IMG/VR virus record: IMGVR_UViG_3300011678_000001
Span: 192,001-256,000 of that record
Strand: one strand, 5' to 3'
DNA length: 64,000 nucleotides
DNA from: a virus
Lineage: Duplodnaviria > Caudoviricetes
Shown piece after piece: positions 3,722 through 38,213 of this stretch. A model generated the notes under the pieces. The model was not told the origin of the DNA. It made no database searches and was given only the letters and a program-made list of their open reading frames with translations. Numbering within the stretch: position 1 is the first letter of the stretch; every line of letters starts with the position of its first letter. The translations under genes and the position numbers were made by a program.

Positions 3722-5947
3722 CTATTCGTTGGTGAGTTCTTTACCAGAACACTGGAACATGTGACGCATGTACGCCAATGGCCGGTGCCCGCCAACCGGT
3801 ACGACTTTCCGGTCCAGCACTTCCGGAATGTTCGTCGGGGTTGGGTGGGTCAACAGCCGACGCAACACGAACTTGTGCGCAATCGGGTTGTTACTGGCAT
3901 CCTTCTGGTCTGCAATGGCTTCACCACCACAGGTCGCAGCTTCCGAGCGGTACTCGGACTCACCGACACGAATGGACGACTGACGACCGGGAGAGTCGTA
4001 CTTGTCATTGTTGGACAGACGGGCAGTGGTACCAAAGACGTTACACTTCGCGGAGGAAGCGGCCATCCAGGAGTCTTCTGCTGTCTTCTCCAGGTTGATG
4101 TACCACGACGGCGCAATCAGCTGAGGCTCACGCGACACCTTCATGTTGCCATCACGACCCCGGAACCGCACAGGGGTAATGAACGGTGGCCAGCGCTCTT
4201 TGATCTGCCGAATAACGTCCGGCATGTTCACCGGGTTATCGGTTGGCATGTACAGGTACAGTCCGTACATGTGATCCAAAAGCACAGAGGCTACGTGGGT
4301 GTACATGAACTCCGGGTTCTGCTCACGGTACTTCGGGTCAACCAGGTCCTGGTACTGGAACGGCGCCACTACCTTGTAGAACTCCAGCAGCTCATTAAAC
4401 GCTGCTTCTACCAGGTCACGGTTCTCCGGGGTGTAGATGACGTCGTTGACTTCCTCCTCGGTGAGTTGCACGTTCTTATTAAAGCCGAAGGTTTCCTGAA
4501 TGCGTTTGCCCAGGTCCCGACCGGCCGCTGCCACGACCATCTCGATTGGCGACGCCGGGGTTTCCCGGTTCCACCGCGAGTTCGGGTCCACGACGATGTC
4601 AGCGACAACTCCGTTCTCATCGACCGGCATGTCTTCGTCAGGCACCACCTCCACCACAACCGACTTGTTCCCGTCAATGTCGGTGATCTTATAGCCTTTG
4701 TTGGGGACCGACAGGTACTTGAACGTGATCTCCACGCGCCAAGCATCCAGTTTCACCCCACGGTAGACTTTGTCGACCTTACCGCCACCGTCTTCACGCG
4801 CCTTGGTGTTGAACCCCCGATCGGGCTTGATGTAGTCAGGTCCAACCCGGCCGATGGCTTCTTTGACCAGTTGGCTAAACTCTGGCTCCAGACGCAAGGC
4901 CATGTTCCGCATGGACGCCCGCTTACGCAGGTCAACCCAGACGTCCACGATCTTGCGGTACCATTCGGTGTCCGCGTTGTAGTACTTGAGCAGCTGCTCT
5001 TCCATGCCAATGGGCAGCGGCGGAATGTTGATCGAGGTGTTACGCTCAACCTTGATGTCCACCACCTCAGCATCGATGTGCTGCACGAACCGCTTACGAT
5101 CAAAGATGTAGTCGGTCTGTTGCAACGCCTCGACGGTCATGTTCGACACAGCGCTGATCGGATCATACCGACGCAAGGCTACCAGCAAGCCGGTGGAATC
5201 AACCTTGTCGCCCAAATCCGGGAAGATCTTGTACTGGCCTGGAACGGTGGATTGGTTGGTCGGGTAGTACTCGCGCCCGAATTCGAAGACTCGCGTCTCA
5301 AATCCTGTGGGGGCCAGTGCTTTCATGTAGCCTGCCCGGACCTTGACACCGTCTTCAGTCCCTGCCACGTCAGAGGCCATCAACACGTTGGTCTCACGAC
5401 CGTACATGTAGTTGCCCTGTTCATCGATCAAAGGTGAATGCGCCAACTTCACCCCTTTCTTAAACCGCGCTCCCTTTCGCAGTTGATCCATCGCATCTCG
5501 GTTCCGCTTGAACTCCGTACCGAAATGTTGGTGCGTGACTTGGTAGTCCGTGAGCATCAGCACGCCAATCTCTGACGTGTTGTAGTTCTCGTAGATCACC
5601 GCTGTCTGTGGCGAATGTTTGATGCGATTGGCACCAGCGGTGTGGGCGAAGCGTGGAATGATCTCCAGCACCTCCACATCGTCTGGAAACTCAATCGAGA
5701 ACGTGGCTTGCCCGAACGCACGTTCCATCCCTGTCATGATGCGCTTGCGCATCGGTTCCTTAATAACAACCATCTGGGCAAGGTTGCCCGTGAACATGGC
5801 TGCACGTGAGGCCGAGATGTGCCGGATGAACGGATTGAGTCCGTACAACGACATCAGCTCAGGTCGCAGCTCTACGGGGTTATCAAGAGCTGGGCTCTGA
5901 TACCGCTGTTCTAATTGTTCTGCGACAGAAAGGTTAGTGTTAAGCAT
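3722..5947 (-). CDS. non-virion RNA polymerase beta-like C-terminal subunit (phiKZ gp71-73-like), uninterrupted
   Basis: RpoB-like motifs SASRAAM, TEDG, GYKITDIDGNKSVV, DMP..ENG...DIVVDP and RVGESE. Confidence 0.92.
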   Translation of the reverse strand: MLNTNLSVAEQLEQRYQSPALDNPVELRPELMSLYGLNPFIRHISASRAAMFTGNLAQMVVIKEPMRKRIMTGMERAFGQATFSIEFPDDVEVLEIIPRFAHTAGANRIKHSPQTAVIYENYNTSEIGVLMLTDYQVTHQHFGTEFKRNRDAMDQLRKGARFKKGVKLAHSPLIDEQGNYMYGRETNVLMASDVAGTEDGVKVRAGYMKALAPTGFETRVFEFGREYYPTNQSTVPGQYKIFPDLGDKVDSTGLLVALRRYDPISAVSNMTVEALQQTDYIFDRKRFVQHIDAEVVDIKVERNTSINIPPLPIGMEEQLLKYYNADTEWYRKIVDVWVDLRKRASMRNMALRLEPEFSQLVKEAIGRVGPDYIKPDRGFNTKAREDGGGKVDKVYRGVKLDAWRVEITFKYLSVPNKGYKITDIDGNKSVVVEVVPDEDMPVDENGVVADIVVDPNSRWNRETPASPIEMVVAAAGRDLGKRIQETFGFNKNVQLTEEEVNDVIYTPENRDLVEAAFNELLEFYKVVAPFQYQDLVDPKYREQNPEFMYTHVASVLLDHMYGLYLYMPTDNPVNMPDVIRQIKERWPPFITPVRFRGRDGNMKVSREPQLIAPSWYINLEKTAEDSWMAASSAKCNVFGTTARLSNNDKYDSPGRQSSIRVGESEYRSEAATCGGEAIADQKDASNNPIAHKFVLRRLLTHPTPTNIPEVLDRKVVPVGGHRPLAYMRHMFQCSGKELTNE

Positions 5948-31209: not shown

Positions 31210-31947
31210 TTAAAGGTAATTCCAATCCGGTCTGTTTTCAGACTTAAGACGGTAAGCTATTGTTGATTCACCTAGTCCAAGTATTTTAGCCGCAGTAGCT
31301 ATACTCGGGTAGGACACACCTTCAATTACAATTGCCTTTTGGCACGTTTCTAACTGTCTGGCTCTTGCCGTAGGTGTGAAATGAACTTCGCGGCGGGCAT
31401 TTGCCTCATTCATCTTCTGGCGCGTCTCGGGACTGATTCCTCCATTGCGGTGCCATGCTTCTGACATCTTCCGACGAGTTTCTTCGGAGGCAGGGCCTTG
31501 AGCAGCACGTGCCTTTGCCATATTGGCAATCACCTGTTCTCTAGGGCGGGCAAAGTTCATCTGCCTAACACGTTCGACATTTTGAGGCTGTAGAGCAAAC
31601 CTGCGAGACGCCTCTATTAAATGGTGCCGGTATTCTTCAGGCATGCCGCCTGCCCACACGCCTGTAGACCCTGTCCCTATATTAGCAAACAATGGGTCGC
31701 CTGCGTGGAAATCGAGCAGTGATTGCTCGTGACGACGTGCTGAATCTAATGTCGAATATTCTACATACTCGATCTGGATGTTGTGCCAGCCGGAGTAAGA
31801 CCGTTGAAAAATATGGTTATCGTGGACTCCCCTATTTAACTTCGATCTATGGCTGCTAAGTCTGGCACTAAGATTACCTGTACTTCCGACATAGAACATT
31901 CCCGTCACTACGTCAGTTAAGACGTACGCAGCAGGAATGCTACGCAC
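31210..31947 (-). CDS. free-standing GIY-YIG homing endonuclease 1
   Basis: AAYVL..FYVGST..RLSSH..E..N core, NUMOD3 (SEETRRKMSEA) and C-terminal HTH; GGAG RBS, GTG start. Confidence 0.88.
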   Translation of the reverse strand: MRSIPAAYVLTDVVTGMFYVGSTGNLSARLSSHRSKLNRGVHDNHIFQRSYSGWHNIQIEYVEYSTLDSARRHEQSLLDFHAGDPLFANIGTGSTGVWAGGMPEEYRHHLIEASRRFALQPQNVERVRQMNFARPREQVIANMAKARAAQGPASEETRRKMSEAWHRNGGISPETRQKMNEANARREVHFTPTARARQLETCQKAIVIEGVSYPSIATAAKILGLGESTIAYRLKSENRPDWNYL

Positions 31948-34559: not shown

Positions 34560-35552
34560 TTAGAAGATCAGACCGGTGTCCGATGCTTCATCGTTGTCGC
34601 CTGCAAAGGTCACGGCGCTGGCGCGGGTCTTGCGCTGCATTTCCATTTCCTTCTTCAGACTTTCCAGCTCGGTGCGGATCTCGGAGAACGAGGTGTTCTC
34701 GATACCGAAGAACAGGCTGGTGTTCGATTGCGCCACGGCTGGCATGAAGCCATCGCAGCTGTACGGCACGAAGATGCTCGGCTGAAGGTCGTCTTGATCG
34801 CGCTTGAGGTAGGCAGCCGAGATCGGGTCCTTCATGTTGGACTCAAAGCCCTTGATGGTGTCGTACACGTGGATGCGCGACAGTTGGGCCGGGACGTCCG
34901 TGGACTTGTTGAAGAACACGAAGCTCTTGATGTCTGCAGTATCGAGACCGTGGTTACGGCGGCTGCACAGCATCGCCAAGGAGGCGATCATCAGGTGGGC
35001 TTCTTTGTCGATGGCCGAGCGCGGCACATCCGGACGGTTCATGCCGAACTGAATGACGACCGGCTTGTCGACCGCACGACTGATGGCATCGAGGGTCTTC
35101 ATGGTGCCGATGGTGTTTTCAGCGGTCTTGATCGACTCGTACGAGCCGGTCACAACACCAACGGTCACATGGCCGTCTTCGAGCAGCTGCTTCATGATCA
35201 GCGGCCCAGCCACCGAACCCGTACCGCCGGAGGCGGTGAAGATTACGATGTTCAGGTCAGCAGGCTTGAACTTTCGCAGGATGTCCGGCACCGCTTTGGC
35301 AATGGTCTTGTCATTGCTGTTGCGGATCTTGCCCGAGCCATCGAGGTCGGTGAAGAGCCAGGTGTTCTCGACCAGGCGATCATCGAGGTTGGAATCGGAG
35401 GTGTCGATGCAGGCCAGTTGGAAGTTGGCGATGTCGGCACTGTGGCCCTCGTGGAAGCTGAGGTATTCCTTACCGAGGTTGATTCCCCCACCCCCGCACG
35501 CATACACCCTGATAGTACCCACGGGCCGAGTGCTTAGTCCTGTTGTTGTCAT
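34560..35552 (-). CDS. phuZ: phage tubulin PhuZ
   Basis: ACGGGGIN, IDTS, DGSGK, SGGTGS tubulin signature, LDTAD T7 loop and acidic tail ending GLIF. Confidence 0.95.
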   Translation of the reverse strand: MTTTGLSTRPVGTIRVYACGGGGINLGKEYLSFHEGHSADIANFQLACIDTSDSNLDDRLVENTWLFTDLDGSGKIRNSNDKTIAKAVPDILRKFKPADLNIVIFTASGGTGSVAGPLIMKQLLEDGHVTVGVVTGSYESIKTAENTIGTMKTLDAISRAVDKPVVIQFGMNRPDVPRSAIDKEAHLMIASLAMLCSRRNHGLDTADIKSFVFFNKSTDVPAQLSRIHVYDTIKGFESNMKDPISAAYLKRDQDDLQPSIFVPYSCDGFMPAVAQSNTSLFFGIENTSFSEIRTELESLKKEMEMQRKTRASAVTFAGDNDEASDTGLIF

Positions 35553-35584
35553 GTGTATCTCCTCACTATGGTAGTTACTGCTGA

Positions 35585-36283
35585 TTATTTAGATCGATTA
35601 ATTCGACCGTGTAAGGTGGAGGTTGGAATGCCCAGAATCCTAGAAGCGTCAACTAGGCTCGGGTAACACACTCCTTCGTAAACTATTTCTTTCTTTCGAC
35701 TTTCCGCCTGGCGGAGCTTAAGGTCTGGATCGTCAATGTACTTTTGCCGAAGTCCCTCTGAGACAGATCGTTTGGTTTCAACTGATCGCTGCCGCCCAAC
35801 GTGTTTAGCTCTGAACTCCGGATCTTTCCACAATTCCTTAGAGCGCTCTGACTGTACCTGCCTGGCTGCTTCGTCGGAAAACTGGCGACGAGTAGCCTCG
35901 CTCAGCTTCCTCTTGGCCTCTTCAGGGACCGGGACACCTAATCCTGTTCGACGGGCATCGGTAGCTACGTTAAACAGTCTGCCTTGACTATGGCCGGCGT
36001 CCAGCAAATGCTGTTCAATGTCAAGCGCTTCTTCTTTACTTTCGGCTTTAATGAAACCCAGGTCGAAACGAGGATCGTCATCATAAGCCTTTTGTAAATT
36101 TGGGTTCCGGTGAGTCCCGTCTTTCAAACGGTTCTTGTGCTGATTAATGCGGGTATATAGATTATGCGTGCTGCCGACATATGCCCTGCCTGTCTTTTGG
36201 TGAGTCAGGACATAAGCCGCTGGAAATGAATGTTCTTTCCTTGTCGGTTTGCCCCTCAGAGAAGCAAGAACTATGTCGTTCAT
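35585..36283 (-). CDS. free-standing GIY-YIG homing endonuclease 2
   Basis: AAYVL..YVGST..RINQH..E..FN core, NUMOD3-like repeats and C-terminal HTH. Confidence 0.88.
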   Translation of the reverse strand: MNDIVLASLRGKPTRKEHSFPAAYVLTHQKTGRAYVGSTHNLYTRINQHKNRLKDGTHRNPNLQKAYDDDPRFDLGFIKAESKEEALDIEQHLLDAGHSQGRLFNVATDARRTGLGVPVPEEAKRKLSEATRRQFSDEAARQVQSERSKELWKDPEFRAKHVGRQRSVETKRSVSEGLRQKYIDDPDLKLRQAESRKKEIVYEGVCYPSLVDASRILGIPTSTLHGRINRSK

Positions 36284-36286
36284 CGC

Positions 36287-36361
36287 TTACACCCCTGTAT
36301 TGTCCCCGCACGCAAAAATCCTGATAGTGCCTACGGGGCGAGTGGAGAGACCAGTACTCAT
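36287..36361 (-). pseudogene. orphaned 5' fragment of phuZ (24-aa mini-ORF)
   Basis: MSTGLSTRPVGTIRIFACGDNTGV* versus PhuZ MTTTGLSTRPVGTIRVYACGGGG; has its own GAAGGA RBS. Confidence 0.9.
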
Positions 36362-36424
36362 GGAGGATGTTCCTTCTTTGGGTTGCTTGGGTTGTGTTGG
36401 TTTAGAACGGGTATTGACGCAAGG

Positions 36425-36452
36425 ATAATGTATCATTACATCGGATTCGATT
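36425..36452 (-). promoter_or_regulatory. putative early promoter of the phuZ unit
   Basis: AATCGAA-N13-TACATTAT. Confidence 0.6.
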
Positions 36453-37472: not shown

Positions 37473-38213
37473 TTATCTTTCTTCATGATTTTTCTGTCGT
37501 CTGAACCTACTAACAAGAGTATAGTAGTTAATACCTGTTTGAGCGGCGGCTTCCTTGATGCTGGAGTAATGGACCCCATCTATGGTTACTGGTCTGGATA
37601 AGGCAGCAGCCATTTTGGCTTTATGTGCCGGATCGTCCATCATCTTCTTCGCTCTAGCTGCCTGGGCTGATTTTAGATCTGGATCGTTCATGACTACTTT
37701 CATTTTCTCTGAAAGCCTTGCTCGAAAAACAGGGTCTACATTCTTGACTTTAGCCTGCTCTAATAAAACCTTACGGACCTCTTCCGATACAGTCTTACCT
37801 GCCATGGAGCGTCTTGCATCGGTTGCAATATTGAAAAGATCATTGCAAACGTGCCCTTCATCCAGCAATTGCTGTTCCAAGTCAAGGGCTTTCTCTTTGC
37901 TATCGGTGAGAATGGCCGACAGATCAAAACGAGCATTGTTATTGTAGGCTTCTTGCAAGGGTCGGTTATCGTGAGTGCCTGCTTTGAGTCGAGACTTATG
38001 TAGACACACTCGATTATAAAGATTCACCGTGCTACCTACATAACGCTTCCCAGTCGAAGGGTGAGACAGTACGTATGCAGCAGGGACTGCATGATCCTTT
38101 AAACTGAGGGAGGTAATTGGAGAGGCGACCGCCGGTGGCTGTCTGGACTGATCATTCTCGATCATTGCGGTATCTCCGTAGGATGTAACGGTATCATTCA
38201 GATTATGAGTCAT
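37473..38213 (-). CDS. free-standing GIY-YIG homing endonuclease 3 (start probably about 38165)
   Basis: AAYVL..YVGST..RVCLH..E..FN core and C-terminal HTH; bracketed by terminators. Confidence 0.88.
   Translation of the reverse strand: MTHNLNDTVTSYGDTAMIENDQSRQPPAVASPITSLSLKDHAVPAAYVLSHPSTGKRYVGSTVNLYNRVCLHKSRLKAGTHDNRPLQEAYNNNARFDLSAILTDSKEKALDLEQQLLDEGHVCNDLFNIATDARRSMAGKTVSEEVRKVLLEQAKVKNVDPVFRARLSEKMKVVMNDPDLKSAQAARAKKMMDDPAHKAKMAAALSRPVTIDGVHYSSIKEAAAQTGINYYTLVSRFRRQKNHEER

Follow-up and report, generated by a model that had tools for sequence, protein, structure and literature searches.

A GIY-YIG endonuclease gene within the phage tubulin gene phuZ as a probable mobile cassette that carries its own replacement gene start

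Can a homing endonuclease gene (HEG) persist inside a conserved coding sequence without being spliced out? The usual view is that homing endonuclease genes either are intergenic or, if located within an essential or conserved coding sequence, depend on an intron or intein. A stretch of 64,000 nucleotides (nt) from the genome of an uncultured, tailed jumbo phage (Duplodnaviria; Caudoviricetes) raises the question anew. This stretch, hereafter the window, covers positions 192,001 to 256,000 of the IMG/VR record IMGVR_UViG_3300011678_000001, a viral metagenomic assembly of 269,790 bp. In it, a free-standing GIY-YIG homing endonuclease gene follows a truncated copy of the start of phuZ, the gene of a phage tubulin, and precedes a full-length phuZ. 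Based on a comparison with related loci, we consider it very probable that the nuclease gene belongs to a mobile cassette that was inserted inside phuZ, brought along a replacement start for the interrupted gene and does so without any need for splicing. The composing features are listed below in window coordinates and are named according to this reading.

36403..36436, minus strand: promoter-like block upstream of phuZ, with the core motif GATACATTATC at 36434-36424; the promoter function is putative.
36362..36402, minus strand: native 5' leader of phuZ as read from the sequence, with the ribosome-binding site (RBS) GAAGGA at 36376-36371; it now serves the stub open reading frame (ORF).
36361-36287, minus strand: stub ORF of 24 amino acids (aa); the stop codon TAA (36289-36287) is followed by GCG and then by the ATG of the nuclease gene.
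36304..36361, minus strand: native phuZ head that forms the homologous part of the stub; it covers codons 1-19 and one further base and ends in GCGTGCGGGG.
36287..36303, minus strand: cassette-borne tail of the stub, 4.7 codons plus the stop codon TAA, containing a Shine-Dalgarno-like site for the nuclease gene (GGGGTG, 36295-36290).
35585..36283, minus strand: free-standing GIY-YIG homing endonuclease gene (Pfam GIY-YIG), 232 aa, with its ATG 3 nt after the stop codon of the stub.
35553..35584, minus strand: 32-nt spacer with a new RBS, GAGGAG (35564-35559), for the working phuZ.
35484..35552, minus strand: foreign replacement head of phuZ, codons 1-23; the equivalent of the junction lies between 35492 and 35491.
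34560..35552, minus strand: working phuZ, a phage tubulin of 330 aa (Pfam Tubulin and TubZ_C_2).
36303-35492, minus strand: putative extent of the cassette, 812 nt, inserted after the first base of phuZ codon 20.

The interrupted gene carries the features by which a PhuZ is recognized, i.e., a Tubulin/FtsZ GTPase domain and a phage TubZ C-terminal domain (matches to Pfam Tubulin, PF00091, and TubZ_C_2, PF22334) and homology to PhuZ of phiKZ (gp039; E 2.4e-35 against structure 3ZBP). Its start is present twice, once in the stub and once in the working copy. Fifteen of the 17 aligned residues are identical between these two heads, and among the first 12 shared codons, 7 differ by synonymous changes; a codon table reproduces both counts, which had been given in an earlier reading of this DNA from its letters (hereafter the sequence-only reading). 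The order proposed in that reading (a promoter-like motif, an RBS, the stub, a GIY-YIG gene 3 nt further on and a full phuZ) is likewise present. Both heads contain the 10-mer GCGTGCGGGG, the last base of which is 36304 in the stub and 35492 in the working copy. There the similarity stops, within an ACGGGG loop that aligns to the T1 glycine loop of phiKZ PhuZ, and so indeed in the GTP-binding glycine loop, as had been suggested. The duplication is not a chance resemblance, since the local alignment of the upstream with the downstream flank scores 86, compared to a maximum of 47 over 30 shuffles. The genome encodes four further GIY-YIG paralogues (genome positions 187589-188290, 190791-191522, 223210-223947 and 229473-230213), the last two of which correspond to window 31210-31947 and 37473-38213; three of the five GIY-YIG genes are within 7 kb of each other. 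No repeat of a gene head was found in the flanks of these other four.

What does the site look like in relatives? A PhuZ search of viral contigs yielded nine loci, to which GenBank adds Pseudomonas phage DT01 (L001). The latter is the nearest cultured relative (PhuZ identity of 56%) and has no such nuclease gene, and a megablast of the locus against GenBank phages gave no matches. Among these relatives and the window, two sites are occupied, one is decayed and eight are empty. The empty sites (DT01, L002-L006, L009 and L010) have a single phuZ head directly after the promoter motif; within flanks of up to about 5 kb per side, none of these eight loci has a homologue of the window's nuclease gene beside phuZ or a second head. 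Hence, a duplicated head without a HEG, which the sequence-only reading had named as evidence against itself, occurs in no HEG-free relative.

The second occupied locus, L007, matches the window in layout. A stub (4157-4228) is followed by TAA-GCA-ATG, a GIY-YIG gene of 255 aa (4232-4999) and phuZ from 4992, the ATG of which overlaps the stop codon of the nuclease gene. The native-type part of the stub ends in TGCGGGG, placing the junction at the same nucleotide as in the window. The tail of the stub is 3 nt shorter, with the frame kept, and shares the TAA-GCN-ATG ending. A search of viral contigs with the nuclease protein and with a DNA pattern of the junction returned L007 only, which was already known, and a single metagenome scan returned L008 again plus one distant tubulin. 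L008 represents a decayed copy of the nuclease gene. Only the last ~34 nuclease codons are found upstream of its phuZ, and they match the C-terminus of an intact 236-aa nuclease from another sample (P0002). A deletion, with AAAGAG of the native leader at one end and AAAGAA of the nuclease gene at the other, seems to have eliminated the stub along with about 195 nuclease codons. At this place, a 54-codon ORF (L008:1477-1641, plus strand) joins a new start to what is left of the decayed GIY-YIG gene, i.e., its last ~34 codons, covering the helix-turn-helix. One may speculate that a remnant of this kind, limited to DNA binding, might keep related nucleases off the site.

The nuclease-free sister genomes (L002 for the window genome, L006 for L007) tell which of the two heads is native. 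Between the window and L002, the phuZ body is 99% identical (900 nt), the working head 67% and the stub 80%; between L007 and L006, the respective values are 97%, 61% and 96%. The working heads thus share 61-67% with their nuclease-free sisters, compared to 97-99% for the gene bodies. The stub DNA of the window is 80-89% identical to the HEG-free alleles L002, L003 and L004 (89% to L004) and 78% identical to the working head next to it. The leader in front of the stub (36362..36402) is similar to that of the HEG-free L004, and the GAGGAG spacer in front of the working head has no counterpart in HEG-free alleles. Mismatches abound between the working ATG and a point 8 nt (window) or 11 nt (L007) past the junction, beyond which they drop to a background of 1-3%; against L002, they are dense through 35484 and then amount to about 1%. 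The stub of L007 differs from L006 by one scattered position and by three positions within its last 10 nt. Based on these position-by-position mismatches, the inserted unit begins shortly ahead of the junction on the stub side and ends shortly past its equivalent in the working copy, and it therefore brought the working head along.

The backbones of both occupied genomes differ by 24% (their phuZ bodies are 76% identical), and judging from the common junction, the unit entered both of them at exactly the same position. Over its first ~480 nt, the nuclease gene of the window shares about 92% identity with that of L007, as opposed to 60-76% for the flanks, and the gene has therefore moved since the backbones diverged. 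The sequence-only reading had proposed that a HEG inserted into phuZ and brought a new start and RBS, and had suggested an alignment with phuZ of HEG-less relatives. That alignment yields single heads in eight relatives and a stub that resembles the native head, and the proposal finds support in the empty and occupied relatives and in the foreign origin of the working head. Allele comparison thus documents presence and absence of the insert, one and the same site in two diverged backbones, a foreign working head and a native stub.

Is the inserted gene a homing endonuclease? The ORF matches Pfam PF01541 (GIY-YIG) with an E-value of 2.4e-9, and a stop codon separates it from the stub. A profile of the family (8 members) matches the catalytic domain of I-TevI (1MK0; E 1.7e-5). 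Seven residues (Y24, Y35, R45, H49, H58, E90 and N105) are invariant across the eight members and correspond to the catalytic set of I-TevI. As the catalytic residues are invariant and the family profile matches I-TevI, the nuclease is probably active. The family profile was needed for this comparison; a single-sequence search of the PDB gave spurious matches only. The C-terminal 40 residues resemble the helix-turn-helix of I-TevI below threshold (I-TevI_DNA-bd, E 0.009 for the window and 0.003 for L007), as does the C-terminal module more generally (NUMOD3, E 0.09; I-TevI 1I3J, E 0.34). Both occupied genomes have unrelated C-terminal tails at the DNA level (window 35585-35790 compared to L007:4720-4999), next to catalytic halves that are ~92% identical, which suggests that the DNA-binding module has been exchanged within the nuclease family. 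The closest homologues of the nuclease are P0001 (91%) and P0002 (79%). A tblastn search against GenBank phages gave identities of at most 32.5%, i.e., no close homologue, and the GenBank phages searched therefore offer no ready experimental system. Altogether, the gene has what characterizes a free-standing GIY-YIG homing endonuclease gene, namely a conserved catalytic domain, a location outside an intron or intein, presence or absence at one defined site and a higher similarity than that of its flanks.

Codon usage is a less straightforward witness. The sequence-only reading had contrasted a stub with mostly core-like codons with a working head rich in unusual ones. This contrast fails, as codon adaptation is 0.46 for the stub and 0.38-0.43 for the working head, compared to 0.83 for the phuZ body, the top value among the 154 long ORFs of the genome. 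Both heads are equally atypical, and the first ~20 codons of phuZ are poorly adapted in every allele (L001-L010 and the window), occupied or empty. The nuclease gene differs as well, with a GC content at third codon positions of 0.47 compared to 0.81 for the phuZ body. A glycine loop in rare codons (GGG GGT GGA GGN) is present in the HEG-free alleles L002, L003, L004 and L009 and in the cassette-borne heads, and the preferred GGC/GGT occurs in L005, L006, L010 and DT01. The rare-codon loops of HEG-free alleles may be scars of earlier occupancy followed by loss. The working head had also been described as a recoded start. That it is a replacement start with a new RBS holds, but recoding does not: the empty alleles likewise contain the Ile/Val and Phe/Tyr differences, together with most synonymous variants. 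Since similar synonymous variants occur in HEG-free alleles, the head is better regarded as a foreign natural allele.

A spliced arrangement is the most obvious competitor. In that case, the nuclease gene would reside in a self-splicing intron, the stub would be exon 1 that is joined to the phuZ body and the second head would be an untranslated relic. Joining the stub at 36304 to 35491 does produce an in-frame phuZ, and a real group I intron is present elsewhere in the window (Intron_gpI, RF00028; 18440-18734, minus strand; 77.8 bits, E 2.9e-19). That intron served as positive control for a search in which Rfam, at E<=1, reported no intron model around phuZ in the window, L007 or L008, and no catalytic RNA core was found. 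Folding of both junction regions is no better than that of shuffled sequence (z of -0.05 and -0.51). Only 20 nt separate the homologous end of the stub from the nuclease ATG, and the about 95 nt between the nuclease stop codon and the junction are mostly coding. With so little non-coding space (20 nt before and 32 nt after the nuclease gene), there is no room for a ribozyme core. Moreover, the second head comes with a Shine-Dalgarno site and an ATG of its own in each of the three lineages, and its protein is kept despite many synonymous differences; it is therefore translated, from a start that does not depend on splicing. The intron explanation is hardly credible in view of this, and as far as sequence can tell, with no intron detectable by Rfam or by folding, the proposal of the sequence-only reading that nothing is spliced stands.

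Other histories could lead to the same two heads. A tandem duplication of the 5' end of phuZ may have come first, with the nuclease gene landing between the copies later and without bringing a new head. In any single genome, the same end product would be expected. A local duplicate should, however, match its own backbone, whereas the working head is 61-67% identical to the sister allele next to a body of 97-99%, and this in two lineages; no HEG-free relative has the duplication, and the junction nucleotide is identical in both lineages. This order of events is very improbable. Somewhat easier to defend, yet still improbable, is that the occupied layout is ancestral and that the HEG-free alleles arose by deletion between the heads, so that the pattern records loss rather than invasion. 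The heads are direct repeats that are able to recombine, four HEG-free alleles (L002, L003, L004 and L009) have the cassette-type rare-codon glycine loop and L008 shows that loss occurs. Nonetheless, L006 cannot be derived from an L007-like genome by recombination between the repeats, because its head matches the stub and the 11 nt past the junction are not of the L007 cassette type, and the nuclease gene is far more similar between the lineages than the backbones are, so it moved after their divergence. Both histories can apply, with some lineages losing the insert and others being invaded. Finally, the record is a metagenomic assembly, in which reads with and without the HEG from one metagenome could have been joined artificially. 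The heads differ at 22% of their positions, so they are not collapsed or duplicated reads, and L007, an independent assembly from another sample, has the same layout, which makes the chance of an artefact practically negligible.

The promoter-like block is 97% identical to the block ahead of phuZ in the HEG-free L002. Its motif precedes phuZ in all relatives, and in L007 and L008 it stands ahead of the nuclease gene or its remnant that precedes phuZ. The sequence TACATTAT occurs 17 times in the genome, 15 of which are on the minus strand, compared to about five expected occurrences, and is probably a promoter element of the phage. Copies are found, e.g., at window 36424-36434 and at genome 188308, 198000 and 214105; the motif often follows a T-rich stretch, and one copy is located directly upstream of another GIY-YIG gene (genome 188290). 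A scan for sigma-70 promoters and terminators performed no better than on shuffled sequence. The early promoter of the sequence-only reading is thus retained as a promoter-like motif, recurrent in the genome and conserved in relatives, with its timing dropped. L002 (4148-4921, plus strand) and L008 (587-1366, plus strand) have related genes of 257 and 259 aa, respectively, between a DUF7484 gene and the phuZ promoter. Both have a Cys-rich N-terminus and a weak helix-turn-helix match, and both are absent from the window. They may constitute another type of mobile endonuclease, in which case this intergenic region would be a hot spot. In DT01, phuZ is preceded by a 250-aa gene that proved to be unrelated to the 257-aa gene in L002.

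How would such a cassette work? From 5' to 3', it comprises a tail with an in-frame stop codon, an I-TevI-like GIY-YIG gene, an RBS and foreign phuZ codons 1-20. The phage's own first 19 codons remain behind, preceded by their own promoter and leader, as a dead-end ORF of 24 codons. PhuZ would be made from the cassette-borne start, and RNA or protein splicing would therefore be unnecessary. By analogy with homing biology in general (PMC2988022), the nuclease would cut HEG-free phuZ close to the junction; a break at this place would fit the short converted tracts on both sides. Repair would then copy the cassette, with the stub and promoter region as the left arm and the phuZ body as the right arm. 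An occupied genome would be immune, as the upstream half of the site is present only in the stub and the downstream half only behind the diverged head. The ~22% divergence between the heads (identical runs of at most about 10 nt) would limit the recombination that removes the nuclease gene. The nuclease gene and phuZ would be co-transcribed from the phuZ promoter, which is probable because no promoter motif lies between them. In addition, ribosomes that end the stub 3 nt before the nuclease ATG may help to start translation of the nuclease. Such coupling by termination and reinitiation is plausible because the TAA-GCN-ATG arrangement is found in both lineages; each nuclease gene also has its own Shine-Dalgarno-like site.

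Some points weigh against this account. Only two occupied genomes and one decayed genome were found, all of them metagenomic assemblies, and the match of the C-terminal DNA-binding module to that of I-TevI is weak and below threshold. The cut site, self-immunity, co-transcription and translational coupling are all inferred from the letters. At a distance of up to 15 nt from the junction, only 2-3 bases distinguish the working copy from some HEG-free alleles (e.g., L003), so immunity would have to rest on these few bases or on the more diverged codons 4-12. The in-frame stop codon that both lineages have before the nuclease ATG could also be inherited from a single ancestral cassette instead of being maintained by selection.

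The closest counterparts of the phuZ cassette are the fungal mitochondrial mORFs, as described in the atp6, atp9, cox2 and nad3 gene hybrids of Glomus (PMC3630166) and in atp6 of Allomyces macrogynus (Paquin, Laforest and Lang 1994, as cited in PMC3630166). As in phuZ, an ORF for an endonuclease is mobile there along with a terminal piece of the gene it targets; this piece is of foreign origin and in frame with the core of the gene. The displaced native segment adjoins and is closer to the sister allele (91-98% compared to 64-81% for mORFs; 96% compared to 61% here, in L007). However, a mORF replaces the 3' end of the gene and needs no new start signals, whereas the phuZ cassette replaces the 5' end and brings an RBS and a start. 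As the displaced piece of phuZ retains its promoter and start, it turns into a translated leader of the nuclease gene, and the host of the cassette is a phage genome rather than an organelle. The phuZ cassette is therefore best viewed, by analogy, as working like a mORF in mirror image, at the 5' end, without being a member of the mORF group.

Among phages, the MobA element of T4-like phages, i.e., mobA plus the gene 60 bypass cassette in a topoisomerase gene (bioRxiv 10.1101/2022.08.31.505936; PMC2988022), comes nearest. It is an intron-less homing element inside conserved coding sequence as well, carries a homologous replacement of the target region and a new start for the downstream gene part, and is found in occupied, empty and decayed states among relatives. 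Yet, MobA is an HNH enzyme and the phuZ nuclease is of the GIY-YIG type, and the MobA element deletes 55-75 nt of native sequence whereas the phuZ cassette strands the native piece. MobA splits its gene into two functional polypeptides and needs a translational bypass of 50 nt; in phuZ, the upstream piece is a dead stub of 19 codons and the working ORF is continuous. With the Seg enzymes of T-even phages ('intronless homing') and with I-TevI, the phuZ nuclease shares the GIY-YIG domain, its conserved residues and possibly a C-terminal helix-turn-helix, as well as mobility between related phages with co-conversion of short flanking tracts (PMC2988022). Seg genes are, however, intergenic and cut a neighboring gene, and I-TevI resides in a self-splicing intron; the phuZ nuclease gene is located inside coding sequence with an intron-like geometry but no splicing. 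Jumbo phage PhiPA3, which also encodes PhuZ, has a homing endonuclease that likewise targets a conserved gene of related phages, but this nuclease is intron-borne and located in an RNA polymerase gene (PMC12908238). A review of the mobile elements of T4 describes gene-splitting insertions only (PMC2988022), and a review of nucleus-forming jumbo phages describes intron-borne endonucleases only, with none in phuZ (PMC12908238). In the literature searched, which was not covered exhaustively, we found no report of an endonuclease in phuZ or of a 5'-end gene duplication beside a phage endonuclease gene.

The phuZ locus would thus represent another solution in a phage to the problem of living in a conserved coding sequence: the gene is cut internally and supplied with a spare head that has start signals of its own. 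The series of evidence is unusually clean, as it spans sites that are empty, occupied or decayed and provides both occupied genomes with a sister allele. More tentatively, and with less confidence than in the insertion itself, cassettes that replace a 5' end may be a general, splicing-free way for homing endonucleases to occupy coding sequences. The stub would then serve as left homology arm, as one half of the split site that confers self-immunity and as translated leader, the unusual codons of the heads would be scars of repeated invasion and loss, and the DNA-binding-only remnant in L008 could protect its site. If true, the stub leader would place the nuclease gene under the promoter and RBS of a highly expressed target gene. 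For annotation, a stub ORF that repeats the beginning of the next gene but one can flag a hidden homing site. The initial codons of such genes can be of foreign origin, a point of relevance to phylogeny and to the analysis of recombination. Since the two nuclease variants resemble each other in the catalytic half and differ in the DNA-binding tail, they constitute a natural pair for studies on I-TevI-like retargeting. Finally, phuZ would join the genes that are contested by competing jumbo phages.

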